IMG/VR virus record: IMGVR_UViG_3300045988_123818
Direction: 5' to 3' (one strand)
From: a virus
Length of the DNA stretch: 64,000 nt
Below the pieces are notes generated by a model. It worked only from the letters and a program-made list of their open reading frames with translations, had not been told where the DNA came from and made no database searches. This document shows, piece by piece, positions 8,372-55,219 of this stretch. Position 1 is the first letter of the stretch. Every line of letters begins with the position of its first letter. The position numbers and the translations under genes were made by a program.

Positions 8372-10363
8372 TTATTGCATCAAGTATCCTTGCGCTTGTT
8401 CTACTGCCTGTTGGTTTGCCTCGGGCACTACTCCGTTCTGTGGCGCTTGCTGCCCCATTGCCTCTTGCTGCGCCCTTAGCTCTTCCATATTACTCTGCAC
8501 GTCCTGCAGCAGCTTGTCTGCAAACGGCTCATTCAGGTTCTGTAGATACTGTATGATGTTGATGGCTCCCTTGTCAAACAACATGTCAAGCTTGTCGTTT
8601 ACGTTGTTCTGATAGGTGGCTGTGGCAGCAGCGTTCTTGATAGAAATCTTGAACATTATGTCTCTTGCGCCCAGTCTGTCATACTCTATCGGGTATGTGC
8701 TATCGCTATTGAAGATGGGTCGGCCGTCCTCATAGTATTGTTTTATCGTCATGCACTTCTTCTGTGCAATATTTTCAGTAAACGATTCCATGTCTTTCAG
8801 TATCGAGTAGAGCGAGGTTGAGGCATTCTGCGACTCTTGCGCATATCTCGAGGCCGATGTTCCAGCCGTTGGCGTCTTGCCTTGCAATGCGCCCGACACA
8901 TTCGACACTTCGCGCATCAGGTTCAGCTCCATCTGCAACAGCTCGTTTGTTCCAAGATTCACGGCGTTCGACGTGATAATGTCTGGCCTTGAGTTTGGCA
9001 GCGTTGCCTTTGGCGTGTAGAATATCATTCCGTCATACTCCGTCGCTTGCTCGGCAAACTCGTCTGGTGTCATTCCGTCCAATACCTGTGTAGGGATAAG
9101 CCATACACCCTTGGCCGACGAGCGTATTGCCATGTCGTTCATTATTATCAAACGGTTTATGTATCTCTGCTGGTCTATCACGTTTGCCATGAACGGATGT
9201 ATTTCTCCGTTGATGTACGGATAGAGCTTTATCGTGAATGGATGCGACTTAAAATCGTATGGCGTCTCTCCGCTACATAGCACGGTTCCGTCTGGTGCCA
9301 TAAACGTGTAGTACCAATACTTGTCTGCCACTTTCTTTGCCGTGATATAGGCTCTGTCTTCTGGCGGTACTCCCATCAGGTCATACTGCTCCTTTCTCTT
9401 CACATTCTTCGCGTTTAGCTCTGCTATCAACACTTTGTCGTCACATTCTATGCGGAAGTAGGCATCACTTTCGTTTTTCGCTATCGGGTCGTAGCATTGG
9501 TATCTGTATTTCGTTTCAGTCGTCCACGCTTCTATTACTCTCACGTATCGTCCGCGCTTCGACGGTATATCAAATGATATGTTCGACAGGTCGTTTGTGT
9601 CGTTGTGCATAGTTCCTTCCGTCTGACTGTCGTCTGGGTCTATGTCGAATATCCTGTTCAGGTCGTCTATACTAAGTCCGTACTCGTCTTTCGCAAATTT
9701 CTTGTACAGGTCGTTTATAGACTCGTCATGCAGCACGCCTATCAGCGACAGGTCAAGGTGTCTTGGGTCTGATCCTCCTTCCCAAAACACATAGTTTGGC
9801 TCTATGTAGTCTGTCCACGAGTCTTCTATCTCCTGTGTTCTGTCTTCGTATGTCTCTCGACACACCATTACTCCTCCTACAAGGTAGTCTTCAAGCGCGT
9901 GCTTCAACAATATCTCCATCTGTGTGTTTTGCCAGTTGCATTGCATAGTGGCAGACATCATATCCGAGAGTGACTGTGAAGAGCGTGTTCTTGCAAAGCA
10001 CACTGGCTCTGTACCTTGCTTTGCGTACATTCCCACAAGTGTGTTCAATATCGACACCATCACATTGTTCGACAACGGCACAGAGCCTTTTCTTTTCAGA
10101 TATTCTCTTTCCGTCATGTCATAGTAGTATCCGTTCTTGTACACTCTCACTGTGTCGCCCCATTGGTCGCCGTAGCAGTATCTCTTGGCCCTGTCTCTAA
10201 CCATACGCACAGCCTCCAGGTTGTTCCATGCCTGCCAACATCGCTGCAGCAGCTCATAGTCCGTCTTCTTGCCCGACTGTCTCTCCTTACGTCTCCGTAC
10301 GGTGTCAAACGTCTTGCCCGAAGTCGGCATTACACGTGATAAGGTGGGTATATTTTTCTGCAT
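8372..10363 (-). CDS. portal protein candidate (663 aa)
   Basis: Supported by size, by being the first gene of the operon divergent from scaffold and capsid, and by a Gln-rich helical C-terminus. There is no motif-level proof. Confidence 0.6.
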   Translation of the reverse strand: MQKNIPTLSRVMPTSGKTFDTVRRRKERQSGKKTDYELLQRCWQAWNNLEAVRMVRDRAKRYCYGDQWGDTVRVYKNGYYYDMTEREYLKRKGSVPLSNNVMVSILNTLVGMYAKQGTEPVCFARTRSSQSLSDMMSATMQCNWQNTQMEILLKHALEDYLVGGVMVCRETYEDRTQEIEDSWTDYIEPNYVFWEGGSDPRHLDLSLIGVLHDESINDLYKKFAKDEYGLSIDDLNRIFDIDPDDSQTEGTMHNDTNDLSNISFDIPSKRGRYVRVIEAWTTETKYRYQCYDPIAKNESDAYFRIECDDKVLIAELNAKNVKRKEQYDLMGVPPEDRAYITAKKVADKYWYYTFMAPDGTVLCSGETPYDFKSHPFTIKLYPYINGEIHPFMANVIDQQRYINRLIIMNDMAIRSSAKGVWLIPTQVLDGMTPDEFAEQATEYDGMIFYTPKATLPNSRPDIITSNAVNLGTNELLQMELNLMREVSNVSGALQGKTPTAGTSASRYAQESQNASTSLYSILKDMESFTENIAQKKCMTIKQYYEDGRPIFNSDSTYPIEYDRLGARDIMFKISIKNAAATATYQNNVNDKLDMLFDKGAINIIQYLQNLNEPFADKLLQDVQSNMEELRAQQEAMGQQAPQNGVVPEANQQAVEQAQGYLMQ

Positions 10364-18822: not shown

Positions 18823-21800
18823 TTAATCAATCTTATCCAAATCTTCTACAGCCTCCTGTATTATCATCTCAATATTCTTATTCGCGAAGTCCACCTGCTT
18901 CTTATCATCGGCCCACTTCTTTCTCATCGTGTTCCAATGGCGCATTCGCTTTTCCGCATTCTTGATGATATTCACCTTTCTTTGCTCAGGTGAGCCTTCG
19001 AACTTTTCCAATGCAGCAGCATTTTCAATCCTCTTCATCGTAGGCACGTTCTTCGATTTCAGCTTGTCGTTATTGGCGATAGTCTGTTCCATTTCCTCCT
19101 TGTAGTTATACCATTTGGCTTTGGTTCTCGCCATGCTCGACTGTTCTCTTGGAGTATAGAAGAGTGAGCGCAAGAATGGCACATCGCCCACTTCTATCTC
19201 GTCTGTCTTGCCAGTCGTTGCCTTTGCACCCAAGCCTGCAGTGCGTTGAGTAAATGTGCCCATACCGCCACTCCACGAACCGAAGAAATGATTGAGCATC
19301 GACGGGTCCGTTGCCCAGTCAAGAACCTCGTTGCCCTTCATTTCCGGATTACCAGGAGCTATATTGTTTGTCTTGGCGTTCACCCACTTGTTCAAGTCCA
19401 CAAGTCTTGCCGGAACATTATTATAGGCGTTCTGCCATGCCGGGTTAAGCTCTGTCTTATCGCCCGTTCGTCTTATCGGCGCACCCTTCCAGTCGTTGTT
19501 AAGCCACCATTCAATGAACGGAACTATAGCAGTAGGAGCAATACCTTCTGTAGTCATGCCAACTCCGTTTTCCAAGCTCTTTTCATAGTTCGGATTATTC
19601 AAGAAGTCCACCACCGGGAATAGCTGCGACATACATCCCACGGCATCCATAGCCATGTTTCGCTGGCTCTTCACATTCTGGGCAAATGTTTGTCCTGCTG
19701 CCAAGTCGCCAAGACTATAGAATGCTCTCAGCTCAATAGCCAACGGCACTGTCACAAATTTGTTATTGCCCACATATATACACAGGTTGTTTCTCCTGAT
19801 ATAGTCTGGTAACTCGCCATACGGGTCTTTCACGTTGCCTCTGTCCTTCTCGTCCTCATTCTGTATAATAGCATTGTTGACAGCAGCCATAATCAACGCT
19901 AAGGCAAACGGTGCAGATGTCATAGCAACAGTAGTACCCACAGGCGCACGCTTGATATTCTTTAACAGCAGGTTCGTACTCTGAATGCCAGCATTAAAGA
20001 ACATCGAGTAGTTTCTTAGGTAGCCTGCCACAAAGCCGTATGTGTTTCGCCTTGCCTTCTGCCAATCACCCATTTCTCCGTTCTTGAAGCTCTTTATAGC
20101 ATCACCCGAACCATGACGGTTGAAGTTTGTCGATACCTCCTTTGCGTCATACGCGCTTCTTGCTGCCGAACGTCCCAAGTCTCTTGATGTGCAATATGTG
20201 GCGAAGCGTGCCATATTCTCAGCCACCTCGTTCAAGCTCTCAACGTTCTCGCCCAATTTCTTAAGCAGTTCCACAGCATTAACCACAACCTTCTTCGCGC
20301 CCTTTGCCGACTCCTTTTCCACAATACTCTTGTAGCTCTTCTCCATGTCGTGCATCGAGAACAACTGAACAAAACCTGTCTCGCCGCCGTTCTCCATGAA
20401 CTCCTTGAAGTATCGCTCCATCTTCGAGTTGCCAAGCGTGCCCTCTCTGTATCGGGCATACAGTCCGAAGCCTACACCATTCTTGAAGTCTTTCATCTTC
20501 ATGCTCTTCAATCTTCCTGCGCCCTCATTGTAGAACACATTCAGCGGATTAAGCTCACCATAATAGCGTGCCCATTTCTTAGCATATCTTCCACCTTCCT
20601 TTGCCCTCACATGCGAAGATGCAAATTCCGCGTCTCTCACGATGTTTCTCATTACAAACTCCGGACTCCACGATGTTGAGGCCATAGCCATCCATCGTGT
20701 CACAGTCTGCAACCACTTTTGGCTTGCCTTGCCGTTCTCCAGCATTCCGTTCAAAGCCTGTGCCGCTCTCGGATTGCCAAGCACCACAAATCTGTGTGTT
20801 CGTCCTGCTATCTTCACGTCCACAAAGTGTTGGCTCTTGTCCTTCGCTCTTTGGAACTTGAAGCCGATGTCCGTGCTGTTGCTCAGACTCTTTGCCTCGC
20901 CCTTAGCTTGCTTGGCCCTCATGTCCGTTTCAAAGGCATCCACAATTTCTGCAACTTCATCAGCTTCGGCTCCTTCGGGAATCTTCGGATAAGCCTCCTC
21001 CCAAATGTCGTTACCGTTTCTGTCTGTGCCTATTTTTTCTACCCAAACCTTTGTCTCCTTCACAAGATTCTGCTCTCCGCTGTTTCTCACGAATCGCGCA
21101 AAGGCTTGCTTTATAGTGTTCTGCCCTCCGTTTCTTATCGCACGGTTGCCCATCAAGCCTATCTGTGCCAATATCTCCACATTGCTCAGACTCTTTCGTC
21201 CCTTGGCGTTCATCAGCGTCGTACCGATATAGTTGCTTGGGTCGCCCATTTCTGTCACATATCCGTATACGTCCTCAGCGGTAGCCTCGTCAAACTTTCT
21301 CAACGGTACATACCAGTCGAACATGCCCAATACTCCGTCATGTGTAATTTGACTTATCAGTCCACTCTCGTAGTCCGAATTTACAGAATAATCAGTAGCT
21401 GCCTTCACCTTCTTCCAGAAGTCGGCAACTGAGCCTTTCTTCATGCTTTCCATGCTCGCCTCCTGGTTCATTACCTCGTCAATAGCTCCGGCATCATCGT
21501 ATGGTGCTTTCTTGTCTGCAATACCCTGCAAGCCGTGCATACCCGAATAGTCATGCTCCTCAGCCTTGAAGTCCTTGTCCAAGTTCTTTACAATCCACTC
21601 GTCCATCTGACGGTAGTACTCTTTCAAGTCTATCTGTCCCGAGTCAAGCTTCTTTCTAAGGTCGTATTTTTCGCCCTTCCAAGCAGTCTCCAAAGCATCA
21701 ATACTATCGGATTCTTCACTCTTCACTTTTCGTTCTTCCCTTATCCAGTCTCTCACGAACAGCACACGGTTTCTCTCCAATCCATGCTTTCTAATCATAT

Positions 21801-24800
21801 ACAGATTGAAGTTCCTTATTCTGTCCTCCACCTTCTTGCCGTCGAAGCTGTCCAACACGCTCGACATAGCCTTGTCAAGCGGCTCCATATAGTGTATTTC
21901 GAAGAGCTTGGATTTGTCGCTCATCTTGCCCTCCGTGATATTTTGCATCAGATATGGATTCATCGAGCTTGCCACATCTTCAATCTTCCTGATAGACGGA
22001 TCAATAGCCTCCATCAGTTTCTTCAACGAGAGCATATTGTCCATGAAAGCCTCCGTAGCCATATAGCTATGACGGTCCAGGGCATGATGGTATCTGTCCA
22101 AAGCGGTAGCAGCACTTGGAGCCGTGCGGTAGTGTATCTCTCCGTCCGTTGTCTCCAGCCATTCCTCGCGACTCATGTTCTCGAAGTCATGGCTCTTGCC
22201 GTCGTTGTCATACAGCTCGCCGCCCTCAATCTTCGTGTACTCCGTCTTCTCATGCTCTATCTTCCACCTCACAGCCTCAGCTCTCAGCTTCCACAGCGGA
22301 CTGTCTCCATGCTTCTGCACGTTCTTCGCAAGCCACAGCATATACTTCACGTCCTTCACGTTAGGCGAAACTCTGTAGCCTATCTCATGCAGGGCATCTG
22401 TCACCTTATTCTTAATGTAGTTCCAGAATCCCGGCTCACCCTTTCCGTCCTCTGCGCTCTTGGCGATAAACTCTTCAATAGCGTCATAGAATCCAAGGTG
22501 ATTCATGTTCATCTTTTCCTTCACATAAGCTCTCAGCTCAGCATTGATAGGGTTGTCCAAGTCCATCCAAAGGTCTCTCATGTAGGAGTCAAACTTATCT
22601 CCAAGCAGTCCTCTCATACCCTTGTGTCCTACAGTCTCGTGCCAAACGGTTTTCTCCGCGGTATACGTGTCATGGATGTTCGGCATATACAGATGCACCT
22701 CGCCCGTCTTCTCGTCATACCAGCCAGTCACCTGCTTGCCGCTCTCTATATCCTTGCGCACCTTCGGGTTCTCAATCTCCTCAACCGAGTTCACCATCTT
22801 CACCTTGCCTCCAGTTCTCTTGGCAACCTTCTCCACGGTCTTGATGATACGCTCGCTCATAGCATTCGAAGCCCCTGAAGTCTTCTCAGGTGTTACAACA
22901 CCCTTGTCGTAGCTCCACCCATTCTCGTCAACATCAGCCATAGCTGCATCGTCTATAGTCTTGTTGAAGTCTTCAAGAATATCCTCAATGGCTTTATCCA
23001 TCTTGCTCTTGTCCGAAACCTCAAAGAGTTTCTTCACAGCGTCCTTCACACGTTCCCACACGCTTCGGTCTCCCTTGCGCATAAGCTCCTTTGCGAAGTT
23101 CACCACTCTGTCCATCACTCCAAGGTCAAGTGCTTTTCTCTGACGTGGGTCTGCCATCTGTGCTGCAAACTCATACTCGTCCTCAAGTCCATAGTTATTC
23201 TCTCTAAACTTCTCTTGGTTCCCAACGGCACGGTCGTATATCTCCGATATTGTCTCAACTGCCTCTATCTGTTTTTGGGTGAGCATACCGTCTGCCTTGC
23301 CGCTCTTCACAAGATGAATGGCTCCGTTCACACCCTCATGTATCATTTCATGAAGAATGGTCACAGGTAACTCTACCTTAGAAGAAGATGTTTTTACAAG
23401 TCCGTCAATAGAATATCTTATATCGCGTTCAGGCGAAGCGTAGCCCATTGGACTTGTCAGTTTGCCACTATTTATTTCATCCTGTACACCAAAGTCTACA
23501 CCAAGGCGTTTTAGCACATCGCGTGTTTGGGCAAACAGTTTTCCGAGTTCTGGGGAGGTGTTAGACTGTCTAAATATCTTTTCAACCTCTCCAAATCCGA
23601 TTTCACTTCCGGCTGACAATCCGTAAGTGTTTCTGAGATTTTCTGCTCTAACTCGTCTATAGTCAAGTTCTCTATTGATTGCAGCCAAGGCAATTCTGTC
23701 TTGTGCTTTATTTCTATGTCCTTGAAGCGTAGTCTTATTATCCGCATTAACGGACGCGAGTCTTCCAGTTCCCGCTCTCTCCGAATCTTCGCCTGTATTG
23801 CTTTCCTTTCTTCTGAGTTCATTTTCTAATTGTTTCTTTTGGTTCTCTAATACTGATTTTCGATAACGGGAAGCAAGGAAAATCTTATCTGAAACAGCTT
23901 GCATAAATTCTTCTTTGCTGTCAAAATCACTCTCTACCTCCCCAATCTCTTCATCAAACTTCTTCTCAATTCCCTCCGATGTCTTCTTGTCAACATCTTC
24001 CGGCACAACACGGCCATCGCGCTGTCCTTTCGAACCGCCCTTCGCCTTGTTATACACCTCAGCAGCGTGCTCCACTCTGTACATCACACTCTTGCCCTCG
24101 TACTTCTTCTTCAAGTATCGCTGCATTTCCTCCTCGGTCATGCCTGCCAACTTGCAAGTCAGTTTCTTTAGCTCCGCAATCACAGCCTGGCTCGTCTCGT
24201 TTCTTGTCTGACGCTCCTGTTGCTCAAAGGTCTCGTACGTGATGCCAAGGAATTTCTTCTTCTGCTCGGCACTATAACCCTCCATATCAAACGGAATAGA
24301 GTAGTCCTTCCAATCGCCTCTGACACGCACGTTGATGCCACCCTCGTTAAAGTCTACCCGCACGTTCTTCAACTCCTCCAAGTCCTTAACCGTCTGCTTA
24401 CTCTTCTTCATCATTATCGCATTGGTGTCGATAATGCGGTCGGGCATTTCCACGTCGCGCAAATCCTCGAAGAAGTCCTCTATCTTGTCGTAGTGACCGC
24501 CCAAGTCCCACTTCTCGGGATGGCCAGCCTTTGCTCGCATAGCCTCGTTGCTTATCTTGTCCACCACCACAACACGGCATACTACCTTCGTACCTGCCTG
24601 TTCGAACACGATGTCGGGCAGCTCCACCTCCGCACGTAGCACGGCGGTCTTCTCGCCCTCAATCCACTTGTCAAACTTCTTGTCCGTTGATCCTCTCGGT
24701 ATGAGAGCCACCACCCGACCGCCTTCTTCCAAGTGTTTAAATGCCTTACCCAAGTGAGCAATGGCTGTTGCTCCAGCCGTGCCGAACGGTGGGTTCATCA

Positions 24801-27800
24801 CCACCACGTCGTGCTTGTTGCTGATGTCGTAGTTCTCGAATATGGTGTTCACGAACTTTCGTCCCAAGCCTCCTGCCTTCAACTGCAACTTGGTGAACAG
24901 ACTCTGGCTCGGCTCAATGGCTGTCATTCGGTTGCCCTTTGGCACATATCGCGCAATGGCTCCATGTCCTGCGCTCGGTTCCATTGCCGTGTCGCCTTCG
25001 CCCATGTTCGCCCATTCCACCATCTTGTAGCCCAATGGTTCCGGGGTAGGGAAGTAGTCCACGCCCTCACGGTTGCGCGAGTTAAGCTTCTGGTTGGAGT
25101 AGTAGTCAAGCACAGCGTCATCGTATGGGTCGGCGTTCTGCTCCTTTGGCGCGTCAAACTCCTTGCCGCCAACGCCCTGCTGCTCAATTGGCACAACTCC
25201 GCTATGCTCCAGTATGCCCTTGGCGAAACTGTCTCTCAAGCTTCGCGCCTTACTGCCAAGCGCAAGGTTCTCCGTCGTCGATACCTGGTTGTTGAACTTC
25301 TCGCCGAACAGCATCATTTCTGAGTTCAGTCCCAATATCGGGTACTCAAATATGGCGTTGCTCTTGTTGCCGATACGGTAGGTGCGTCCCTCTATCTGCA
25401 AGACTGTGATAGGGCTTTGTGGCAGAGCCAATGTTATGCACACTCGCTGATGCTCGCCCGTCTTGTCATGCAGCGAGATTCCCTCCTTGCCGCTCGCCTC
25501 CTGAATCACGATGATGTTCTTGCCGCTGTTGTCGTCGTTGAAGGTGTCCACGGCCTTGTCCTTCACCTTTGAGCTTTCCTTGCCACTAAAGAACAGCACG
25601 TTGTCCTTGCCGAACACCTTGGCTATCTGCTCTCTTGGCATACTGTAGTCCAATGTCTGCTCCCACTTCAACAAGTCGGCATACTTCCGGCTGAAAGCTC
25701 TAACAGCCTGTATCGCCTCGTTCTTTGCTTCGCCTGGCTTCATAAGTGAGATAGAGTAATTAGCTCTATCCAACATCAAGGCGAACGGCGGCTTTATAGG
25801 TTCCTTTGTCTCCACTCTTCGGTGGAATATCACGACCTTGCGTCCTGCGTCCAAATGGGCCTTTATGCGCTCGATAATGTTAGCCACCTTCATAGTCTCA
25901 AACAGCGCGCTACCATAAGTATAGTCGCCTATCGTCTTACGGTAAGCGTCTGCCAGCACTCCGTGTCCTCTTACGGCATCCTGCACAGCTTGGTTGAACT
26001 GCTCCGCATGGTCGGGCGATACCGTCGGGAAGTCTCTTGAATAGTCATACGGACTGTCTATAATGCGTCCGCTCATGGTTCCCAACGTGTCTAGCAGATA
26101 GTCAGAGAAGGCTATCTCCTGCTTGGCTACAGCTTCGGGATTACTCGTGCTCTGCTCCAGTCTGCCATAACGGAACTTGTATGCAGCGCCAAAATGGTCA
26201 AGATAGAACTGTGTGCGCCCGCTCATTCTTCCGCCCTTTTCTTCTTCGGGATATTTGAAAATGTATCCCTCCGCATAGTCAAGGTTCTCGCGTGTATTGA
26301 ACGGTGTGGCTGAAAGGAAGATAGTCTTTGTGTCCTTCCATTCGCTTTTTGCCTGCGCCTCAAGCTTAGGCATCACCTCATTTATGTAATGACTAAAAGC
26401 CTTCTTGAATTCGCTGTGTATCTCTCCAAGCTTCGGGAAACTGGCATAATCTCCAGGAGTAAAGTTTATTATCTCCTTCGGTAATGCTTTACTTGTAGCG
26501 TATGATATGTCACGTGCCGTTGCGCTCGGATGGCTCGCTTTGTATTCGTCCTGTATACGTTTTACTTCTTTATCGCGCTCAGCGTTAAACTGCTCGCTAA
26601 GGCTCTTCATCTTCTGATAGTCTGCATTCGTCTCTTGTAGCCTAAGGAAGCAATGATTCTCGCTTCTGTTCGTCATCATGTAGTGCTGCATACTACGTGC
26701 TGTCTCCGCACCATTCTTGTTTTCCATGATACGGTGACTCTCGTCGTATATCACAGCATCCCACTTGGTTTCCAGCAGCTTCTTGTTCACTCCGAAGTTG
26801 GCGAATGTGGTGATCACCACGCCCTCGCCGCTTTCCGTCGTAGCCGTTGTGCCACGCTCCTTGGCTATGCTGTCAAGGTCGCGAATCTCCATGTTCAGAT
26901 TGCGTCCGTCCTTTATCCAGTCGCTCACCTTCTTCTGGCTCGGTGTCACAATAAGTATTCGTCCCTTGCCCTGCTTCACAAGTCGCTTCGCAATGCCAAG
27001 TCCCGTGAATGTCTTGCCCGTACCCGTGCCGTTGGTGAACATGTAGCCCTTGCCATAGGCGTGCTCTCTGTCCGCATGTTCCTTGCCGAAGAACTGTGTC
27101 TCTGCTTTCAGTACGTCCTCCTGCTGCTGAGGCAGAAGATAGGGTAGGGTCTCCTCGATGTTCTTCTTGTCGCCTATCTTCACCTTGATAGGCTCGGCCT
27201 CCATCTGTCTCTGATACTTATCGTTCAGAGGCTCTGAAAGCTTGTTTCTCAGCTTCTCGTTTCCGTGGATGCCTGCCCATTCGCCGATGGTATGGGTCTC
27301 ACCGTCCATCTGGTAAGGAGTGTTCCAATAGTCTTCGATGAATCTGTCAACATCATCATCGCTGAGGCCTATCATCTTCAACTCCTCGCCTTCCTCGGCG
27401 CGCATAGCTGCCTTCCACTCGTTGAACTTGTAGATACCTTCCTTTATTTTCAGCACAGCTCCATTAAGGTGCATCTTGAACAACTCGGGGAGCATTTCTA
27501 TCTGCTCGGGCGAAAGGTTCAGCTTCTTGAAGGGAGTCAAGGCTATCTTCACATATCCTTGTCCTGCCTTCTTCCATCTTTCCCAAAAGTCCTTTTTCTT
27601 CTGCTCGTATTCGGCGCGCTCCTGTTTTAGTCGCTCAGATGTACTATCTGGGAAATGAGTTCCTTGCTTGGTTGCAGGCTTCCGTCCTGCATTCGGGTCA
27701 AGAGGTCCATTGCCGCCGCCTTGTCCTCCTCGCTTAGGTACATTTCCCTCATTGCCAGCTCCACCGCCTCCTCGGGTGTCAGTACTTCCGGCAGATACGG

Positions 27801-30800
27801 CATCCATTCCGGGTGTATTTCCTTCACCTTTGTCAACGCGCGGTTTTCCAGTAGATACAGGAGTGTCGTTCTCACCGCCCGTTCCGCTCTCTCGCTCTCC
27901 GGGTGTAGTTCGTTCGCCGTCTGTTCTATCCACTGGTCCATCAGGTCCTCCGCCTTCTCGTCCTCGTCCCAATCCCAATTCTTGGCTGCCTCCAGTATTG
28001 GGAGCATCCAACTGTGTTCCGTCTTTTGTTCCGCTATTGTCGGGAACATTCTCATGTCTACTTCTAACATCGTTCCAAATTTTAAAGTAAGAAATTGCGT
28101 TAATTATATTGCCCTTGTCGCCACGCAAGTATGCGAGTGCGGCAGGTATCAACTCTTTGTTCTCCTCAGAAGTCAGCTCGTTTATCTCTGTTTCCGTAAG
28201 AGGATTCTTCGATGATACGGCTTCTCGTTCCTCCAAGTCCATCTGTTCCCAAGGCTTGTCTATCTTCTCGGCTTCTGCCTTGCCTACTTCCTCGCCAAGA
28301 ATCTTTCCTATCTCTCGACCGATAATCCTGCGTCGCTCCACCAAGCCAATACCGTTTCCTCTCAGCTTGGTTTCCATCGCCTGTTTCATCTTCTCTGTAG
28401 CACGCTTTATATCAGAAGCGTCGCCACTCTCCTTTGCCTTCGCCAGTTCCTCCTTAGCCTTCTGCACCTGCTCGTCCTTATACATTTCTGCAGTATGCGC
28501 CAACCAAGCCAACGGATTTGTCTTCGAAGGTTCCTCCTTTGTCTTCTCACCCTTCGGGTCTATAGCGTCTTTTATATCGCCCTTCGGTGTTACAACACTA
28601 TCGGATTTTTCACTTTTCTCTTTTCCCTTTTCACTCTCCCTCTTGACAGCCTTGTCTACTTCTCGCTGTCCTTCTGCTGGTTCGTTTCCTCCTGGTGCTT
28701 GCGGTTCAGTTCCCTCAGAGCTGCCAGCATCGCCATTTCCTTCTTTGCTTGAATGTCTTGTTTCATAGTCTTTCCAATTTCTAAGTTTTAAAAATTCGTT
28801 TACAAAATCTTCCTTTGTAGGCCTCTCGCCAAACATTTCCGCCTGACTGGCATCCGCATAATGAGCTGCATTACGGTTATATGCCATCATCAGCTCACGG
28901 AAGTCCTCAACCTTACCCTCCAGAGCAAGAGCGATAGCCTGAGATATAGGGTCAAATCTGTCCGCAGCGTTCTCGCCAAACATAGCAGGAGTGCGCAAGT
29001 ATGCGTCCACACCGCTTCCGCCTTGACGAGCTTCATATACCAACTGCACAGCCTTGTCTATCTCCTTCATCAGAGCATAGTCGCCAAGTTTCATGTTGTC
29101 TGTCACAGCACGGATGCCATTCAGAGCCTTTGTCTTAAGCATTCCGTCAACGCCCATCATACGGATAGTGTTTTCTGAGAACACGCTGCCAAGCAACAGA
29201 TTCTTCACGAAGTCCTTGCCTGCTGCCGAGAGCTTGTCTTCACTCTCACGCAATCCGGCTACCTCGTTCAGACCAATCACGCCCTTATCTATTAAACGCT
29301 TTAGCAACGAGTTTATTGCTGTAGGATTGTTAAAGAATGCATCAAGATTACCGCTTCCCTCTATCTCTGATATAATAGTGCCTATCTCGTCTGCAGAAAG
29401 CTTCTTCGAGTTCGCCACTGCTTGCTGTGTATTGCCCTGTGTCTTCTTCTCGTTCTTGTTGAACTTGGCGAAGGTTGCCGTGTCATACTTCATCGGCTCG
29501 TCACTCACAAGAACAAGGCGCGGATGCTTTATTCCGCTCTGCTCAATCTGCTCTGCGGTGAAGCCGTAATTCTCTGCATTCTCCTTCAATGCTTCAAGAT
29601 AAGCACTGTCGGTACCGTTCTTTGCTGCCTTCTGTCCCGCCATCGTTCTGCCGTTACCGTCAACAACAATGCCGTCAGATGTCACAACCGGAACCTGGTC
29701 TACTGCCTGTCCGTCATACTTCATGGCTATCATATCAGTTACCAGCTGAGCCTGCTTGTCATTCTCATAGTCACGGTCATTGATAGTCCTGCCTTCTTCG
29801 TTCACGGGGAAACCATCACTCTTCTTATATCCGTCGTTGGCATTATGCGAAGGTGTCAGACTGTCTGCTTCAACAATCTCATAGTGTCCTCTTAGCTTGC
29901 TTCCGTCAGCCAATGTACGTGTACGCTTGTTGCCCACAATACGCTTACCGCTTTCAAACTTCTCACGAACAGCGCCTAAATTACCTGCTTCACTTACCGA
30001 ACCTTCTTCACCTGCACTACCTACCTTCTCCATTCCAGCCTTAACCTTATTCGCGGTCATTACCTTCTTGATATTGGTATATAGCTCCAGTTCTGCTTTG
30101 GCGGCATCAACCGCCTTCGTCTTCTGAGCCTCAGCTTCCTTGGCGTCGTTCAAGTCGCCCGTGTAATCCACCTTTATTTTTTCGGCTTCTTTCAGCATCT
30201 TCTCGGCTCTCTTTATCTGTCCGTCTACAGCAGCTTCTGCGTTCTCGCCAAACTGCGAAGACATCCACTCCGCTCCATGTTCGGGTGTCATTTGCGAGTA
30301 GTCAGCAGTCTCACGGCCTTTCGTGTCCTTCATCATCGGCACAGGTGACCCATCGGCAAATGTTAAAGTCTCGTTACTTCCATTGCCATTATCGGATGGA
30401 TTATTTTTTTCTCCTTCCCCTATAGGCTTTACATCTTCAACTCCAGGCGCCGACGCACCCTCCTTCGGTGTTACAACACTCTCAGTCTTAGTATCGGATT
30501 TTTCACTTTTCTCTTTTCCCTTTTCACTCTCAGCGTAAGCCACCGAGTTCTTCTCCTCCAACATCGTCTGATAGTTCTTGGCATAGTCCTCCGTCTTTTC
30601 CACATGGTCAAGCTGCACGTCCTTCTTGCTCACGAAGTCCATCTCCTTTGTATTCGGGTCAAGCACGCTAAGCATGTCGCCAACGCTTTCTCTCGCTCTA
30701 CCCTCATTATCAAAGGCAACATCGCCCGCTCCAACAATAAGTACTCTGCCATTGTTGTCCTTCACAAACAACATCTGGCCGCCATCCTGCTTCTCGCCGT

Positions 30801-33735
30801 TCAGCTCGCCCTTATAGCTCCATTGCTCCACATGCTTCTGCACGGTCTCAGCAATCTTCTGTTCAGTTCCGCGATACATGCCCACAGCCTTAGCCTTGGC
30901 GTTGATGTAGTCGGCAAAAGGTGCAAGCTGTTCCTGCGTCAGTCCCGAGTTTATCAGCTCCATGTATATCTGAGGTTCCGAAAGACCTTCCTTTGTCAGT
31001 CTCTCATACTCCTGCTTCAACACATCGTTGCTTTCCAAGGCTGCATTAAACGCCTTTTCGGCATTATTCATGTTGTTCAGCACCTCAGCCACAGCCTCGT
31101 TGTTAGGATTCTCCGTGCCAAGGTTATTCTCCTCAACCACGTCCTTGCCCTCTGTCTGCGACTGGTCGGGATGCAACGTTCCTTCCGGGAACTGCTCTCC
31201 CTCATAAGCCTTTCTCAGAGCCACACAAGCGTTCTGTTCTCCCTCGCTGCGCTTCAACGGGTCTTTATCCATAGCTGCCTTCAACTGTTCAGCAGTAAAG
31301 CCAAACGTTTCGGCTACAGTCTCCAAGGTTTCTTGCGCCACCTTCTCGTCCTTTATCTGAGCTGCACCATAGGCATTACCCAAACGTTGGTTTTCGCGTC
31401 TCAGTCTGAGTGAGTAAACTACAGAGTCTCGTTCGTCTTCAGTTTTGACGATATGTTCTGACAATAGCTCTCCATATTTACTATACTCGCTTACAGTGCC
31501 TCCTCCATAACCAATATACTCCATCATAGGACGTGACGAAGGAACCGTTCCCATAACCAAAGCAGAGAACTTAGCCTTTGTGTCCCAAGGTATTGTATTG
31601 TCTGCCATTATCTCATCATAGGCAGTCTTCACAAATTCAGCGTCCGTATCCTTATACGACTCCTCACCTTTCCCTTTGGCTGCGGTCTTCTTTGCTCGCA
31701 TCGCCCAAGATGTCAGACTTTCTTTTCTCGTCAGCGGATTGTCGTGTACGTCATATCCGTAGACAGACTCCTTGCGCTTCGGTGCAGACGCGCTTCCGAA
31801 CAGCTGTTCTTTCTCCTCATTAGTGAAAGTATATCCACCAAAGGCTGCTCTCTGTCCGTCAGATGTCATAAGGTTTTTAATGTTTCTCGCCACCATGTCA
31901 AGATAGCTTTCCTTCTTGCCATCCTTCGCATAACGCTTAGGCAGTCTTGCATGTGTCAGCTTCAAGGCTACAACATTGGCGCAAGCCTCAAGGTTTCCCT
32001 CTACGCTCAGCCAATCTGTATCATGTCCCTCTATCATCTTGGCAACATTACCACCCATGTGCATACCAACGCCTTCCATAGCCAACTGGAACACCTTGGC
32101 AGGAATACGCTTCACGCCACTCACATTATAGATTCCTGCACCTACAGCACCGCCAATGCCGCCCATAGTAGCCCAGCTTGCGCCCTCAGAAAGACCGCCC
32201 ATAGTCATAAGCTTCACGGTATTGCCAATAGAAGTATCATCGCCAGTAGAGTAGTTCTGCACGGCTGCATTCGTCGAACCGTACAGCACACCCGTCACGC
32301 CTTGACTCACAGCACCCGTTGCAGCCATTCTGACGATACGACCGCGCAATGACGTGTTCGCTATTCTTGCTGCCTGGGCTACTCCGTTACCCATAACCTT
32401 GCCTGCCACGGCTGCACCAGCCTTTCCTAATGCGCCAAACACAGGAGCGTCTGCAGCAAAGCTCAATGTTCCGCGTGCAACTCTCGCACCCATACCCGGC
32501 TTAACATAAGGATTTTCCCCGTTATCGGTCATAGCCATGCCTTGCTGAGCATACTGTCTCTGCTTCTTTGACATCATGCCCATCGACAAGATAGTGCCTA
32601 TCATCGAGTCGTTGACACCACGGATGATATATTCTGCCGTACTCTTAGGCATATTACGGCTCAATTCGCTCTTCTCAAACTCCTCAGCTATCTTTGCTTG
32701 CAAGCCAGGAGCTATATAATTCTTTACATAATCCTCTGGGTCGATACCTAACGAAGCTGCCTTTTCTACTATTTCCTTCTGCATCTTCGGGTCAGAGAAC
32801 AACCCAGCCATGTCTTTCTCGGCATTCTTGCTGAGCTGATTCATTAGCTTGTCAGGATCAAGGGCTTCATTGTAAGCCTTTCCTGCTGCCATATATGCAA
32901 ATGGAGAAGCCTTGCTCAAAGCATCTTCTGCTGCAACACCTTTAACTGTCGCATCCTTAAACATCTTTTGGATACTATTGTTTATATATCCGCCAAGCTG
33001 TTTGTCAACAAGCTGTCTGCTGCTTTCTTCCAACTCATCCTCCAACTGTCCCCTTGTCTTCACAAGGTTATTGTTCACGTCCTCGTTCCCAAGGTCAAAG
33101 GCAGGAGCATTCCTTCGTCTTATCTCACCCTCAGCATTTCTACCAGCCTCTTGTCCAGCCTGTTCCATTCTACGCTCCAGTGACTTCTGTGCTCTTCTCA
33201 CACCGCCTACCATCTGTTTTACAGCACCCGGCTTTGTATAGTCTATAGGCATCTGCTCTTCATCGCGTCTTTTCGAGGCGTCAGCCTCCCTAAGACCCTT
33301 CACAAGCTCACTCTCCTTACCCACAGACACAGAAGGCGCAGCAGCGCCCCTATTCAAAGGCTTACCACCCATAGCAAAGCTATCGGATTCTTCACTCTTC
33401 ACTCTTCCCTCTTCACTTTCACCTCCCCACTTCTCTTGCGCTACCCGCTCCTGTGCGCGTCCCAATGCAGAACTATAGGATTTTTCACTTTTCCCTTTTA
33501 CCTTTTCTCTTCTCACGGTTCTTCCCGTAAACAGATGAGCACCAAAGTCACCAACACGACTCGCATCCTTTACGCTCACATCGCCTCTTCGCCCTGTCTT
33601 TCGGTCTATCACCTCCATTCGAGCACCAGGAAATGCTTTTGCAAATCCCATCGGGTCCTTGTCATACGCTGTCTTGTCTACCGTATGCCTGTTACCTTTC
33701 GCATCCTTGAAATAATAATATCTATTGTCTGCCAT
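18823..33735 (-). CDS. giant polyvalent protein (4970 aa): Gly-zipper region, ParB-like, SNF2/DExH helicase, N6-adenine MTase, two HExxH zincins, C-terminal TM module
   Basis: VVDGNGRTMA (about 29650). GTGTGKT (about 27020), DESH (about 26740) and QIEGRTYRIGN (about 25380). EPSAGHG (about 24970) and NPPFG (about 24785). HEMIHEG (about 23340) and HETVGH (about 22625). The TM segment SAPFALALIMAAV (about 19900). Confidence 0.9.
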   Translation of the reverse strand: MADNRYYYFKDAKGNRHTVDKTAYDKDPMGFAKAFPGARMEVIDRKTGRRGDVSVKDASRVGDFGAHLFTGRTVRREKVKGKSEKSYSSALGRAQERVAQEKWGGESEEGRVKSEESDSFAMGGKPLNRGAAAPSVSVGKESELVKGLREADASKRRDEEQMPIDYTKPGAVKQMVGGVRRAQKSLERRMEQAGQEAGRNAEGEIRRRNAPAFDLGNEDVNNNLVKTRGQLEDELEESSRQLVDKQLGGYINNSIQKMFKDATVKGVAAEDALSKASPFAYMAAGKAYNEALDPDKLMNQLSKNAEKDMAGLFSDPKMQKEIVEKAASLGIDPEDYVKNYIAPGLQAKIAEEFEKSELSRNMPKSTAEYIIRGVNDSMIGTILSMGMMSKKQRQYAQQGMAMTDNGENPYVKPGMGARVARGTLSFAADAPVFGALGKAGAAVAGKVMGNGVAQAARIANTSLRGRIVRMAATGAVSQGVTGVLYGSTNAAVQNYSTGDDTSIGNTVKLMTMGGLSEGASWATMGGIGGAVGAGIYNVSGVKRIPAKVFQLAMEGVGMHMGGNVAKMIEGHDTDWLSVEGNLEACANVVALKLTHARLPKRYAKDGKKESYLDMVARNIKNLMTSDGQRAAFGGYTFTNEEKEQLFGSASAPKRKESVYGYDVHDNPLTRKESLTSWAMRAKKTAAKGKGEESYKDTDAEFVKTAYDEIMADNTIPWDTKAKFSALVMGTVPSSRPMMEYIGYGGGTVSEYSKYGELLSEHIVKTEDERDSVVYSLRLRRENQRLGNAYGAAQIKDEKVAQETLETVAETFGFTAEQLKAAMDKDPLKRSEGEQNACVALRKAYEGEQFPEGTLHPDQSQTEGKDVVEENNLGTENPNNEAVAEVLNNMNNAEKAFNAALESNDVLKQEYERLTKEGLSEPQIYMELINSGLTQEQLAPFADYINAKAKAVGMYRGTEQKIAETVQKHVEQWSYKGELNGEKQDGGQMLFVKDNNGRVLIVGAGDVAFDNEGRARESVGDMLSVLDPNTKEMDFVSKKDVQLDHVEKTEDYAKNYQTMLEEKNSVAYAESEKGKEKSEKSDTKTESVVTPKEGASAPGVEDVKPIGEGEKNNPSDNGNGSNETLTFADGSPVPMMKDTKGRETADYSQMTPEHGAEWMSSQFGENAEAAVDGQIKRAEKMLKEAEKIKVDYTGDLNDAKEAEAQKTKAVDAAKAELELYTNIKKVMTANKVKAGMEKVGSAGEEGSVSEAGNLGAVREKFESGKRIVGNKRTRTLADGSKLRGHYEIVEADSLTPSHNANDGYKKSDGFPVNEEGRTINDRDYENDKQAQLVTDMIAMKYDGQAVDQVPVVTSDGIVVDGNGRTMAGQKAAKNGTDSAYLEALKENAENYGFTAEQIEQSGIKHPRLVLVSDEPMKYDTATFAKFNKNEKKTQGNTQQAVANSKKLSADEIGTIISEIEGSGNLDAFFNNPTAINSLLKRLIDKGVIGLNEVAGLRESEDKLSAAGKDFVKNLLLGSVFSENTIRMMGVDGMLKTKALNGIRAVTDNMKLGDYALMKEIDKAVQLVYEARQGGSGVDAYLRTPAMFGENAADRFDPISQAIALALEGKVEDFRELMMAYNRNAAHYADASQAEMFGERPTKEDFVNEFLKLRNWKDYETRHSSKEGNGDAGSSEGTEPQAPGGNEPAEGQREVDKAVKRESEKGKEKSEKSDSVVTPKGDIKDAIDPKGEKTKEEPSKTNPLAWLAHTAEMYKDEQVQKAKEELAKAKESGDASDIKRATEKMKQAMETKLRGNGIGLVERRRIIGREIGKILGEEVGKAEAEKIDKPWEQMDLEEREAVSSKNPLTETEINELTSEENKELIPAALAYLRGDKGNIINAISYFKIWNDVRSRHENVPDNSGTKDGTQLDAPNTGGSQELGLGRGREGGGPDGPVDRTDGERTTPGERESGTGGENDTPVSTGKPRVDKGEGNTPGMDAVSAGSTDTRGGGGAGNEGNVPKRGGQGGGNGPLDPNAGRKPATKQGTHFPDSTSERLKQERAEYEQKKKDFWERWKKAGQGYVKIALTPFKKLNLSPEQIEMLPELFKMHLNGAVLKIKEGIYKFNEWKAAMRAEEGEELKMIGLSDDDVDRFIEDYWNTPYQMDGETHTIGEWAGIHGNEKLRNKLSEPLNDKYQRQMEAEPIKVKIGDKKNIEETLPYLLPQQQEDVLKAETQFFGKEHADREHAYGKGYMFTNGTGTGKTFTGLGIAKRLVKQGKGRILIVTPSQKKVSDWIKDGRNLNMEIRDLDSIAKERGTTATTESGEGVVITTFANFGVNKKLLETKWDAVIYDESHRIMENKNGAETARSMQHYMMTNRSENHCFLRLQETNADYQKMKSLSEQFNAERDKEVKRIQDEYKASHPSATARDISYATSKALPKEIINFTPGDYASFPKLGEIHSEFKKAFSHYINEVMPKLEAQAKSEWKDTKTIFLSATPFNTRENLDYAEGYIFKYPEEEKGGRMSGRTQFYLDHFGAAYKFRYGRLEQSTSNPEAVAKQEIAFSDYLLDTLGTMSGRIIDSPYDYSRDFPTVSPDHAEQFNQAVQDAVRGHGVLADAYRKTIGDYTYGSALFETMKVANIIERIKAHLDAGRKVVIFHRRVETKEPIKPPFALMLDRANYSISLMKPGEAKNEAIQAVRAFSRKYADLLKWEQTLDYSMPREQIAKVFGKDNVLFFSGKESSKVKDKAVDTFNDDNSGKNIIVIQEASGKEGISLHDKTGEHQRVCITLALPQSPITVLQIEGRTYRIGNKSNAIFEYPILGLNSEMMLFGEKFNNQVSTTENLALGSKARSLRDSFAKGILEHSGVVPIEQQGVGGKEFDAPKEQNADPYDDAVLDYYSNQKLNSRNREGVDYFPTPEPLGYKMVEWANMGEGDTAMEPSAGHGAIARYVPKGNRMTAIEPSQSLFTKLQLKAGGLGRKFVNTIFENYDISNKHDVVVMNPPFGTAGATAIAHLGKAFKHLEEGGRVVALIPRGSTDKKFDKWIEGEKTAVLRAEVELPDIVFEQAGTKVVCRVVVVDKISNEAMRAKAGHPEKWDLGGHYDKIEDFFEDLRDVEMPDRIIDTNAIMMKKSKQTVKDLEELKNVRVDFNEGGINVRVRGDWKDYSIPFDMEGYSAEQKKKFLGITYETFEQQERQTRNETSQAVIAELKKLTCKLAGMTEEEMQRYLKKKYEGKSVMYRVEHAAEVYNKAKGGSKGQRDGRVVPEDVDKKTSEGIEKKFDEEIGEVESDFDSKEEFMQAVSDKIFLASRYRKSVLENQKKQLENELRRKESNTGEDSERAGTGRLASVNADNKTTLQGHRNKAQDRIALAAINRELDYRRVRAENLRNTYGLSAGSEIGFGEVEKIFRQSNTSPELGKLFAQTRDVLKRLGVDFGVQDEINSGKLTSPMGYASPERDIRYSIDGLVKTSSSKVELPVTILHEMIHEGVNGAIHLVKSGKADGMLTQKQIEAVETISEIYDRAVGNQEKFRENNYGLEDEYEFAAQMADPRQRKALDLGVMDRVVNFAKELMRKGDRSVWERVKDAVKKLFEVSDKSKMDKAIEDILEDFNKTIDDAAMADVDENGWSYDKGVVTPEKTSGASNAMSERIIKTVEKVAKRTGGKVKMVNSVEEIENPKVRKDIESGKQVTGWYDEKTGEVHLYMPNIHDTYTAEKTVWHETVGHKGMRGLLGDKFDSYMRDLWMDLDNPINAELRAYVKEKMNMNHLGFYDAIEEFIAKSAEDGKGEPGFWNYIKNKVTDALHEIGYRVSPNVKDVKYMLWLAKNVQKHGDSPLWKLRAEAVRWKIEHEKTEYTKIEGGELYDNDGKSHDFENMSREEWLETTDGEIHYRTAPSAATALDRYHHALDRHSYMATEAFMDNMLSLKKLMEAIDPSIRKIEDVASSMNPYLMQNITEGKMSDKSKLFEIHYMEPLDKAMSSVLDSFDGKKVEDRIRNFNLYMIRKHGLERNRVLFVRDWIREERKVKSEESDSIDALETAWKGEKYDLRKKLDSGQIDLKEYYRQMDEWIVKNLDKDFKAEEHDYSGMHGLQGIADKKAPYDDAGAIDEVMNQEASMESMKKGSVADFWKKVKAATDYSVNSDYESGLISQITHDGVLGMFDWYVPLRKFDEATAEDVYGYVTEMGDPSNYIGTTLMNAKGRKSLSNVEILAQIGLMGNRAIRNGGQNTIKQAFARFVRNSGEQNLVKETKVWVEKIGTDRNGNDIWEEAYPKIPEGAEADEVAEIVDAFETDMRAKQAKGEAKSLSNSTDIGFKFQRAKDKSQHFVDVKIAGRTHRFVVLGNPRAAQALNGMLENGKASQKWLQTVTRWMAMASTSWSPEFVMRNIVRDAEFASSHVRAKEGGRYAKKWARYYGELNPLNVFYNEGAGRLKSMKMKDFKNGVGFGLYARYREGTLGNSKMERYFKEFMENGGETGFVQLFSMHDMEKSYKSIVEKESAKGAKKVVVNAVELLKKLGENVESLNEVAENMARFATYCTSRDLGRSAARSAYDAKEVSTNFNRHGSGDAIKSFKNGEMGDWQKARRNTYGFVAGYLRNYSMFFNAGIQSTNLLLKNIKRAPVGTTVAMTSAPFALALIMAAVNNAIIQNEDEKDRGNVKDPYGELPDYIRRNNLCIYVGNNKFVTVPLAIELRAFYSLGDLAAGQTFAQNVKSQRNMAMDAVGCMSQLFPVVDFLNNPNYEKSLENGVGMTTEGIAPTAIVPFIEWWLNNDWKGAPIRRTGDKTELNPAWQNAYNNVPARLVDLNKWVNAKTNNIAPGNPEMKGNEVLDWATDPSMLNHFFGSWSGGMGTFTQRTAGLGAKATTGKTDEIEVGDVPFLRSLFYTPREQSSMARTKAKWYNYKEEMEQTIANNDKLKSKNVPTMKRIENAAALEKFEGSPEQRKVNIIKNAEKRMRHWNTMRKKWADDKKQVDFANKNIEMIIQEAVEDLDKID

Positions 33736-54416: not shown

Positions 54417-54695
54417 TTACAGCTTCTTCAAGTTATACCCCGTCACCGCATTAAACCACCGACCTTGCCACTCTCTTGTGTCAATGCTTATGTCGCATCC
54501 CACAGCGTCACCATTGCCCAGTTGGTTCACCACGTCTACTTGCGCCCCTCTAAACGTCACCACTATATTCTTCGGATATTGCAAGCTCGTCACATGCTCT
54601 ATCACAACGTCACGTTCTCTCCACTCTCTGCCAGACTGGCTTATGCCGCTCTTCTCGGGCAGAATCTTTATTATCGGTCCTTCAATATGTATCAT
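54417..54695 (-). CDS. DUF3127-family protein (OB-fold-like)
   Basis: IEGPIIKILPEKSGISQSGREWRERDVVIE...YPKNIVVTFRG...REWQGRWFN fits the DUF3127 pattern as I recall it. Confidence 0.65.
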   Translation of the reverse strand: MIHIEGPIIKILPEKSGISQSGREWRERDVVIEHVTSLQYPKNIVVTFRGAQVDVVNQLGNGDAVGCDISIDTREWQGRWFNAVTGYNLKKL

Positions 54696-54698
54696 CTT

Positions 54699-54795
54699 AA
54701 TTCCTAATTTATTAATTCAAAACAAAGTCAAAAATCAAAAATTCATAATTGCGCCCCGGCGCAACAATTCCTAATTCCTAACTCATAATTCCTAA
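54699..54795. promoter_or_regulatory. AT-rich leader with four AATTCCTAA boxes and a GC hairpin
   Basis: Boxes at 54699, 54766, 54773 and 54787. The palindrome ttgcgcc-cc-ggcgcaa lies at 54749-54764. Confidence 0.5.
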
Positions 54796-54799
54796 TTCT

Positions 54800-55219
54800 C
54801 TACACCCACCCTGCGCCACCGCTTGCCAGCTCTGCCTTTGCGTATCTCAGACCTCTCTCGTCGTCCTTGTCCGGTATCATCACCTCGTTCATCGACGCAT
54901 AATCCAGGAAGTTCCTTATCACGCTCGACATTTCAGCTGTAGTCAGGTAACACAGCGGTTTTGGTTTTTTACTTCCGTCTGCCAGGAATATATGCGGACA
55001 CACGTCCTGCTGTATCGTCCGTAGCACACTATAGAATATCTCGCCCTGCTTGTATCCGTAGTAACTGATGATGAAGTTCAGATAAGCCATCTGCTTGTTC
55101 GTAGCCACCTCTCTGTGCTTCACTATGTCTATTGCATACCCGCAGTCGCGAGCCTTGTCTATCTCTCTCATTGCAGCCATATACTGCCTTGGGTCATTCA
55201 GCCGCTCAAAAGTCGCCAT
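54800..55219 (-). CDS. hypothetical protein (139 aa)
   Basis: Long ORF. Confidence 0.7.
   Translation of the reverse strand: MATFERLNDPRQYMAAMREIDKARDCGYAIDIVKHREVATNKQMAYLNFIISYYGYKQGEIFYSVLRTIQQDVCPHIFLADGSKKPKPLCYLTTAEMSSVIRNFLDYASMNEVMIPDKDDERGLRYAKAELASGGAGWV

Follow-up and report, generated by a model that had tools for sequence, protein, structure and literature searches.

The locus described here raises the question of why a single viral gene should carry, at five places and always in the same reading frame, nearly the same short stretch of DNA. It lies in a window of 64,000 nt (the whole stretch of DNA that was analysed) from the IMG/VR virus record IMGVR_UViG_3300045988_123818, and the gene is a giant open reading frame (ORF) of 14.9 kb on the minus strand (18823-33735) that, according to the ORF list, its translation and Pfam, encodes a polyvalent DarB-like anti-restriction protein of 4970 amino acids (aa). 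The repeated stretch is a purine-rich cassette of ~42 nt on the coding strand, the translation of which is dominated by lysine, glutamate and serine (K/E/S). We propose, as the likely explanation, that these cassettes are in-frame, single-arm copies of a repeat of Prevotella-type bacteria and phages, one that resembles both the Rickettsia palindromic elements (RPEs) and the MITEs (miniature transposable elements with inverted repeats), and that the copies are tolerated as linkers and have in part spread within the gene.

Five copies of one nucleotide unit in a single gene

The five cassettes have one orientation and one frame within the giant ORF and are found at aa 82, 113, 1077, 1707 and 4005 of its product. 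The first two, c1 (33471-33513, peptide REKVKGKSEKSYS, aa ~75-88) and c2 (33379-33421, peptide SEEGRVKSEESDS, aa ~106-119), are in the N-terminal hypervariable linker. They are followed by c3 (30462-30532, with the unit itself at 30490-30532) and c4 (28581-28638, unit at 28597-28638), which lie upstream and downstream, respectively, of a ParB block and have a tail in common (..TKTESVVTPK in c3, SVVTPK in c4), and by c5 (21703-21744, peptide REERKVKSEESDS, aa ~3998-4011), a patch that replaces sequence of the same length within a conserved segment. All of these are on the minus strand. The plus-strand pattern ATCGGATTYTTCACTYTTC is found with no mismatches at 21706, 28600, 30493 and 33382 and with one mismatch at 33475, while 0.00 matches to it are expected from shuffled sequences, and a profile scan of the whole window returned the five cassettes in the giant ORF and nothing else. 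An earlier note on this DNA had described five in-frame copies and had listed their peptides, and both statements are borne out, the latter by translation of the ORF.

When repeats were grouped, the five cassettes formed a single 40-nt family in which c3 and c4 are 100% identical and the others are 75-85% identical to c3/c4. The identity of c3 and c4 continues past these 40 nt for a further 18-19 nt (AGTGTTGTAACACCGAAGG), a segment that is split in c3 only, relative to c4, by the 12-nt insertion CTAAGACTGAGA, and c2 and c5 have AGTGAAGAGTGAAGAATCCGATAG in common (24 of 24 nt). Alignment therefore confirms the relationships among the copies that had been reported earlier. The coding-strand sequence of the unit is (TTA)AGTGAARA followed by two to three further GNGAARA heptamers and by ATCC(G/A)ATAGT, for a total of ~42-45 nt; more briefly, it is a run of about four GNGAARA heptamers followed by TCCGATAGT, and in the cassette the part after the heptamers reads ATCCGATAGT. 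The 7-nt period is out of phase with the codons, and in all five copies the first serine of the cassette is specified by AGT and the second by TCC. The purine-rich arm has one open frame out of three, the product of which is a hydrophilic K/E/S peptide (..SEKGKEKSEKSDS..), and the core that is common to the cassette peptides is K-S-E-[EK]-S-[DN]-[ST].

The same unit in bacterial chromosomes and in other phages

At the nucleotide level the cassettes belong to a repeat family of the host bacteria. The key and non-circular test of this membership is a hidden Markov model (HMM) built from 36 units that were taken exclusively from bacterial loci of the Prevotella/Segatella type. Against the 64-kb window this host-only model matched exactly the five cassettes, with E values that range from 5.4e-13 (c2) through 4.8e-12 (c5), 1e-8 (c4) and 5.8e-8 (c1) to 6.3e-8 (c3), the next match having an E value of 1.8. 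The bacterial genomes were scanned with a 17-mer from the cassette, which gave at least 120 matches, many of them by chance (an estimated ~277 are expected), and 8-kb loci were kept if their profile score exceeded 22 and they contained true multi-heptamer units. Among the matches listed there were 29 such loci, 24 of which are labelled Prevotella (P. merdae at three loci), Segatella, Bacteroidaceae or Phocaeicola; in this same set several genomes have multiple loci and some loci have two to five clusters within 8-9 kb. The unit is present at the host loci as tandem arrays with a period of ~44-45 nt and also as inverted arrays.

The same 17-mer was used to scan viral contigs, and this yielded relatives of the giant gene as well as contigs with almost no protein similarity to the window. 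In four contigs of the second kind (L001, L023, L075 and L076) the unit makes up half of a palindrome located between co-directional genes. Here the purine-rich arm is joined to its inverted counterpart by a loop that reads (A/G)ATAGTTAAGAGAGCACAT, and the whole is situated between the stop codon of one gene and the start of the next. Arm-loop-arm copies are found at these four loci and at L101, L124, L168 and L171, and the copies in the window are single arms only. The phage palindromes fold strongly as RNA (z-scores of -6.8 and -4.95), and a further z-score of -2.3 was obtained for the full element. The ends of the element are terminal inverted repeats, TTAA(A)GTGAAGA... and ...TCTTCACTTAA, with an internal region of ~18 nt to ~150 nt between them. 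Non-coding, palindromic and tandem forms of the unit therefore exist elsewhere, and 36 of the 41 element clusters in the bacterial and other-phage loci are outside long ORFs, with the remaining 5 running in frame through them. The strings that make up the element were not found in the literature searched by exact string, and the family appears to be undescribed.

Several of the retrieved loci have features of their own. In L076 a phage gene on the minus strand ends within a cassette at ~700-660 (..ELVIVSEK*), such that the repeat supplies both its last residues and its stop codon. Three loci from a bin labelled 'Firmicutes bacterium CAG:103' (L102, L150 and L192) and one from an Acutalibacteraceae bin (L176) are element-rich and carry non-Bacteroidales labels, with L102 having four element clusters in 8 kb together with a primase-like gene, and these four may be mis-binned phage or Prevotella contigs. 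In a further group of viral contigs (L003, L004, L008, L021, L024, L025, L027, L029-L031 and L035) the exact 17-mer lies within an acidic protein segment (..TGESEKSDTVQDE..) that lacks a heptamer run and scores only ~15 bits with the cassette profile; these matches are probably unrelated to the cassette.

In-frame copies and empty sites in host proteins

Unrelated host proteins also contain the element in frame, and there are orthologues in which the site is empty. This census is based on an analysis of ORFs in the retrieved loci; a protein search with the translated tandem unit gave no match, the word index probably performing poorly on low-complexity sequence. The proteins concerned are a RecD/PIF1-like helicase, a DnaG zinc-ribbon protein, an ABC-F ATPase, a BcrAD/DUF2229 activase and biotin-carrier proteins (two loci), and in each the element lies between Pfam domains. 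It is translated as ..SE(E/K)RRVKSE(E/K)SNS.., and the host-encoded peptides LSEERRVKSEESNSS resemble those of sites 2 and 5 in the window. Orthologues of the helicase form a series, with the empty site in proteins of 473-480 aa, a purine arm plus an inverted arm in a protein of 509 aa, and expansions in unit number at 538, 552 and 582 aa. In the Prevotella RecD/PIF1-like helicase (L116 1806-3554; proteins P0001-P0120) these steps in length are all at one loop and arise from insertion of the element and from the number of its 14-15-residue units, so that a housekeeping gene in effect contains a translated minisatellite.

Variation and selection among the homologous giant genes

The earlier note had suggested asking whether homologous giant genes lack the cassette at the same sites. 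The 38 homologues, which are 51-95% identical, have between 0 and 5 cassettes each, so the cassettes are polymorphic, and all 55 of the 55 cassette occurrences in the gene family are on the coding strand and in the same frame. Sites 1-4 are hypervariable linkers with unit-internal indels of 15 and 21 nt. Close homologues have a 15-nt indel in c1 and more distant ones have unrelated sequence in its place, and in the homologue L032/L056 c2 lacks 21 nt, equivalent to three heptamers. The isolated Bacteroides phage BKO1-TP3 (L234, PQ571269.1 42666-59327) has a DarB-like giant gene of 16.6 kb that adjoins its portal gene and contains neither a cassette nor any comparable intragenic nucleotide repeat, and the cassette is therefore not intrinsic to the gene family. 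The giant gene of another homologue (L064, contig 082671) is interrupted, its longest ORF having 2698 aa and one more cassette being located in the part downstream, and the split could be genuine or the result of a frameshift or a sequencing error.

Orthologous cassettes are no better conserved than the sequence around them (0.964 in the cassette versus 0.970 in the flanks at site 3, and 0.711 versus 0.852 at site 5), and within the cassette codon positions 1 and 2 vary as much as position 3, while the flanks show the usual purifying pattern. Hence the likeness of the copies reflects a shared nucleotide origin rather than strong selection on either peptide or DNA, and there is no extra constraint on the cassette peptide. 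The conservation of synonymous sites that had been noted earlier is real between the paralogous copies but does not extend to orthologues, and the accompanying proposal that constraint or spread acts at the nucleotide level needs to be divided, in that purifying constraint is rejected and what is left is better described as an origin at the nucleotide level.

A second repeat in the same linkers

A second linker repeat, (E/Y)ASLGLTKP, encoded by GCCTCACTGGGCCTTWCTRAGCC with GCCT every ~10 nt, is unrelated to the K/E/S cassette. It fills the equivalent linker sites in cassette-poor homologues, and its count is anticorrelated with that of the K/E/S cassettes. The carriers are L036-L065 (for example L047, at aa 110, 1064, 1083, 2593, 4142 and 4525), the repeat was also recorded in L198, L207, L209, L210, L212, L214, L217 and L226, and it is not found in the window. 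The same nucleotides are also present in stop-interrupted, apparently non-coding contexts in other phage contigs. That a repeat occupies the same linkers and is non-coding elsewhere lends support to the view that linkers of this gene are in general prone to acquiring dispersed nucleotide repeats.

Proposed origin of the cassettes

In the origin that we propose, the native form of the repeat would be the tandem array or, where two arms are opposed, the hairpin palindrome, situated mostly between genes. A unit that enters a gene would persist where a flexible, surface-exposed stretch is tolerated, because one frame of the arm is open and hydrophilic. The 15-kb DarB-like polyvalent gene would offer long inter-module linkers of this type in which single purine-rich arms could be captured in frame, and some of the cassettes would then have been copied between linkers by intragenic duplication or by short-patch gene conversion. 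The evidence for this copying is the sequence that c3 and c4 have in common beyond the unit and the sub-variants of c5, which always stay within the heptamer family and so indicate short-patch conversion. An in-frame selfish element like the RPEs was one of three explanations offered in the earlier note, and it is the best supported of these, given the occurrence of the same unit in Prevotella-group chromosomes and in unrelated phages, where it is mostly non-coding and sometimes in frame. To judge from the sequence, the cassettes would be functionally near-neutral linkers, and the host of the phage is probably a Prevotella-group bacterium. The spread of the unit may have involved transposition of the MITE or REPIN type (REPINs being hairpin-forming pairs of repetitive extragenic palindromic, REP, sequences) or recombination, and any direction assigned to its transfer between host and phage would be provisional.

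A number of observations weigh against this origin. All five copies are in a single gene that makes up 23% of the window, which suggests either intragenic spread or a property specific to this gene rather than random insertion. Site 5 is not an insertion, since a two-allele nucleotide alignment reveals a same-length replacement patch of ~66 nt with identical flanks, and none of the five sites in the giant gene gave a clean pair of empty and filled alleles with a target-site duplication. The giant gene has single arms only and never full palindromes, so that classical MITE insertion is not demonstrated there, and its orthologous cassettes are stable across many contigs, so that current mobility in the phage is not shown. 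In the host helicase the empty and filled sites are strongly diverged, with TAA or TTAA as a possible target-site duplication. Five of the 29 bacterial loci kept among the matches listed are from bins that are not labelled Bacteroidales, although these may be mis-binned. Lastly, the cassette peptide or its DNA may yet have a function, as far as can be judged by sequence analysis.

Alternative explanations

The alternative that survives best, while still being improbable, is that the cassettes are in-frame recombination joints, that is, identical stretches of 40-60 nt in a fixed phase at which the RecT-type recombinase of the phage, or that of the host, would swap, insert or delete modules with the frame kept intact. 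The ddrB-ParB block is flanked by c3 on one side and c4 on the other, which is also where the main module-indel junctions among the homologues fall, the large ones being at aa 1071-1122 (c3) and especially at aa 1684-1710 (c4; ~25 homologues), and c4 always marks the right-hand border of a slot occupied by different modules. To this extent the earlier statement that the copies fall at module boundaries is correct, but it does not apply to c1 and c2, both in a hypervariable linker, or to c5 in its conserved segment. Recombination joints would also be consistent with the identity of c3 and c4 over 40 + 18 nt, with the short-patch exchange at site 5, with the RecT-like and SbcC-like proteins encoded in the window, and with the second repeat family in the same linkers of other lineages. 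However, near the cassettes there is no significant enrichment of the ends of nucleotide-homology blocks shared with the 38 homologues (68 observed versus 43 ± 21 expected, P = 0.14), the giant gene is mosaic throughout, no inserted module has cassettes on both of its flanks, and other major junctions (aa ~3230, 3460 and 3612) are free of cassettes. Linkers may be prone to module indels and to repeat insertions separately, the one not causing the other. The broader idea that the K/E/S and ASLGLTKP repeats together serve as phase-compatible joints for the in-frame gain, loss and swap of effector modules in giant polyvalent anti-restriction genes, as a form of exon shuffling in bacterial viruses that is driven by selfish repeats common to phage and host, is improbable to the same degree.

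It is less probable again that the cassettes act as linkers recognised or cut by a maturation protease, such as an embedded zincin metallopeptidase (MPTase) or a prohead protease, which would divide the polyvalent protein into functional units, and that gene conversion keeps them uniform. Auto-processing by MPTase domains is predicted for polyvalent proteins and DdrB of phage P1 is processed before packaging (PMC5512222), and the giant protein does have HExxH motifs as well as cassettes with a common core that are located in linkers. Yet the zincin motif WHETVGH is present in nearly all of the 38 homologues irrespective of whether they have 0 or 5 cassettes, which argues against obligatory cleavage sites, and the homologue in the isolated Bacteroides phage has no cassette at all. 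Non-synonymous changes are as frequent as synonymous ones, purifying selection is no stronger than in the flanks, and the same nucleotides are found in non-coding DNA and in housekeeping proteins of the host. From the earlier suggestion of protease linkers made uniform by conversion we would therefore retain the conversion or duplication, as seen in the identity of c3 and c4 beyond the unit and in the patch at site 5, and set aside the cleavage.

There is even less to recommend the possibility that the cassettes are cis-acting nucleic-acid signals, such as internal promoters, translation-initiation enhancers, anti-termination sites or protein-binding sites, and we regard it as very unlikely. 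The tract is A/G-rich and, as RNA, the window cassettes are unstructured (z-scores of -0.2 to -1.6); the element lies just upstream of genes in other phages; and c2 is followed, as read from the sequence, by an in-frame ATG 15 nt after the cassette. Nevertheless, when the five sites were read, start codons did not follow them in any consistent manner and a -7/-33 motif of the Bacteroidetes type was lacking, and at the gathering score Rfam matched neither the window nor four element-rich loci. Homologues manage without any copy, the element is embedded in frame in unrelated host genes of housekeeping type, and its intergenic form in other phages is a hairpin and not a single arm. The internal promoters or initiation sites envisaged in the earlier note are thus not supported. 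Finally, K/E/S-rich disordered linkers are common in large multidomain proteins, but the idea that the cassettes are ordinary low-complexity linkers that are alike by chance or by compositional convergence is refuted by the zero expectation from shuffling, the identical AGT and TCC serine codons of the five copies, a heptamer period that is out of codon phase and matches to the bacterial-only profile that reach E=5e-13.

Four other candidates were set aside. A hairpin or other RNA structure at the window copies is ruled out by the z-scores given above and by the lack of an inverted partner arm in the window. The remaining three were dropped on reading the sequences: adenine-specific mutation of the type caused by diversity-generating retroelements, as the copies also differ at positions other than A; a slippery frameshift site, as c2 and c5 are without a slippery heptamer; and a parS-like site, as the unit is not palindromic and is also found within host housekeeping genes.

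The carrier gene and its phage

The domain content of the giant protein and its genomic setting place it among the phage-type polyvalent proteins, with DdrB-ParB and LPD38 predicted in one polypeptide that is encoded in the head/packaging region; these two domains are specific to polyvalent proteins of the phage type (PMC5512222). The ddrB-like ParB domain (aa 1277-1399; 29539-29907, minus strand; Pfam PF18763, E=4.4e-14) is between c3 and c4. Between c4 and c5 there are an SNF2/ResIII helicase core (aa 2217-2348) and a Helicase_C domain (aa 2710-2789), together spanning 25369-27087 on the minus strand (PF04851, PF00176 and PF00271), and the LPD38 domain (aa 4637-4855; 19171-19827, minus strand; PF18857, E=9.4e-27) is downstream of c5. 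The giant ORF thereby unites modules that are kept separate in the Dar system of P1, namely a DdrB-type ParB, a DarB-type helicase/methylase region and zincin motifs, and isolated Bacteroides phages have a gene of similar size beside their portal gene. The C-terminal block of the protein matches proteins annotated as 'DarB-like antirestriction' in isolated phages, and by megablast no annotated phage or plasmid matched the giant gene.

The portal gene (8372-10363, minus strand; PHROG 156, E=6.6e-58) is ~8.5 kb from the 3' end of the giant ORF, and its product is 34-37% identical to the portals of Bacteroides phages BS-TP4, BKO1-TP3 and BF1-TP2, which identifies the window as a tailed phage related to isolated Bacteroides phages. 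The window also has terminase-like, RecT-like and SbcC-like genes and a G+C content of 45%. Elsewhere in the window, at 54725-54808 between two minus-strand ORFs (54417-54695 and 54800-55219), short repeats of the TTAGGAAT type surround a small GC hairpin (TTGCGCCGGGGCGCAA). This region is ~86% identical over 74 nt to L075 (1404-1474) and also matches L001 (4850-4885). Both are phage contigs that bear the palindromic K/E/S element and have no other relationship with the window, and the region is possibly a further intergenic repeat that they share with it.

Significance and comparison with known systems

If the proposed origin is correct, the family would provide a second clear example, this time from beyond Rickettsia, of selfish palindromic DNA residing in protein-coding genes, and in Prevotella/Segatella, a major lineage of the human gut. 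An element that is common to phages and hosts provides a nucleotide marker by which uncultivated gut phages, including that of the window, can be linked to Prevotella-type hosts. The linkers of giant, injected anti-restriction proteins are sites at which DNA of this type accumulates, which bears on how mosaics of 5,000 residues evolve, and recurrent peptide motifs in such proteins should not be annotated as processing sites until the DNA has been checked.

The carrier itself is like the polyvalent and Dar proteins described previously by Iyer et al. (2017) in having DdrB-ParB, an SNF2 helicase, a methylase region, zincin motifs and LPD38, and that description does not contain the words 'linker' or 'low-complexity', and so has no account of recurrent linker cassettes (PMC5512222). 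The cassettes differ from this known architecture in being an addition that is seen in some lineages of the gene only. The PeSL 'mobile regulatory cassettes' of T4-type phages, as reportedly put forward by Arbiol and colleagues in 2010, are said to be short repeats at module borders for which a role in modular shuffling was proposed. PeSLs would, however, be intergenic promoter-plus-stem-loop units, whereas the cassettes considered here are translated, are confined to one ORF and have a weak association with breakpoints.

MITEs that are common to bacteria and phages are known, with Prevotella phages among the carriers (PMC11602168), and BrickBuilt of Porphyromonas gingivalis, which has inverted-repeat ends and an internal tandem minisatellite, is always intergenic (PMC4596501). 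The present family is similar in consisting of small, non-autonomous inverted-repeat elements in both host and phage genomes, but the MITEs are described as intergenic and the copies of interest here are translated. Our comparison with MITEs is based on the inverted ends and the distribution of the element. REP sequences are typically extragenic and form REPINs, inverted pairs that fold as hairpins, in addition to decayed singletons. The BOX elements of pneumococci are modular repeats in which a tandem sub-unit of ~45 nt lies between partly complementary ends, and they too are typically extragenic (see also PMC10969869). The family described here has comparable tandem sub-units of ~45 nt, hairpin pairs and single arms, and it differs in often being read through in one frame.

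As noted in a review of MITEs that summarises Ogata et al. (2000), RPEs are found in frame within protein-coding genes (PMC10969869). The present family is like them in being a short palindromic repeat, among the loci listed mostly of one bacterial lineage, that is both intergenic and in frame in many unrelated genes, where it contributes a conserved extra peptide to tolerant parts of the protein. It is unlike them in that it belongs to Prevotella-type Bacteroidales, has an unrelated sequence with arms made of GNGAARA heptamers, forms in-frame tandem arrays of variable copy number, and is common to phages, one gene of which has a single arm of the element five times over in one ORF.

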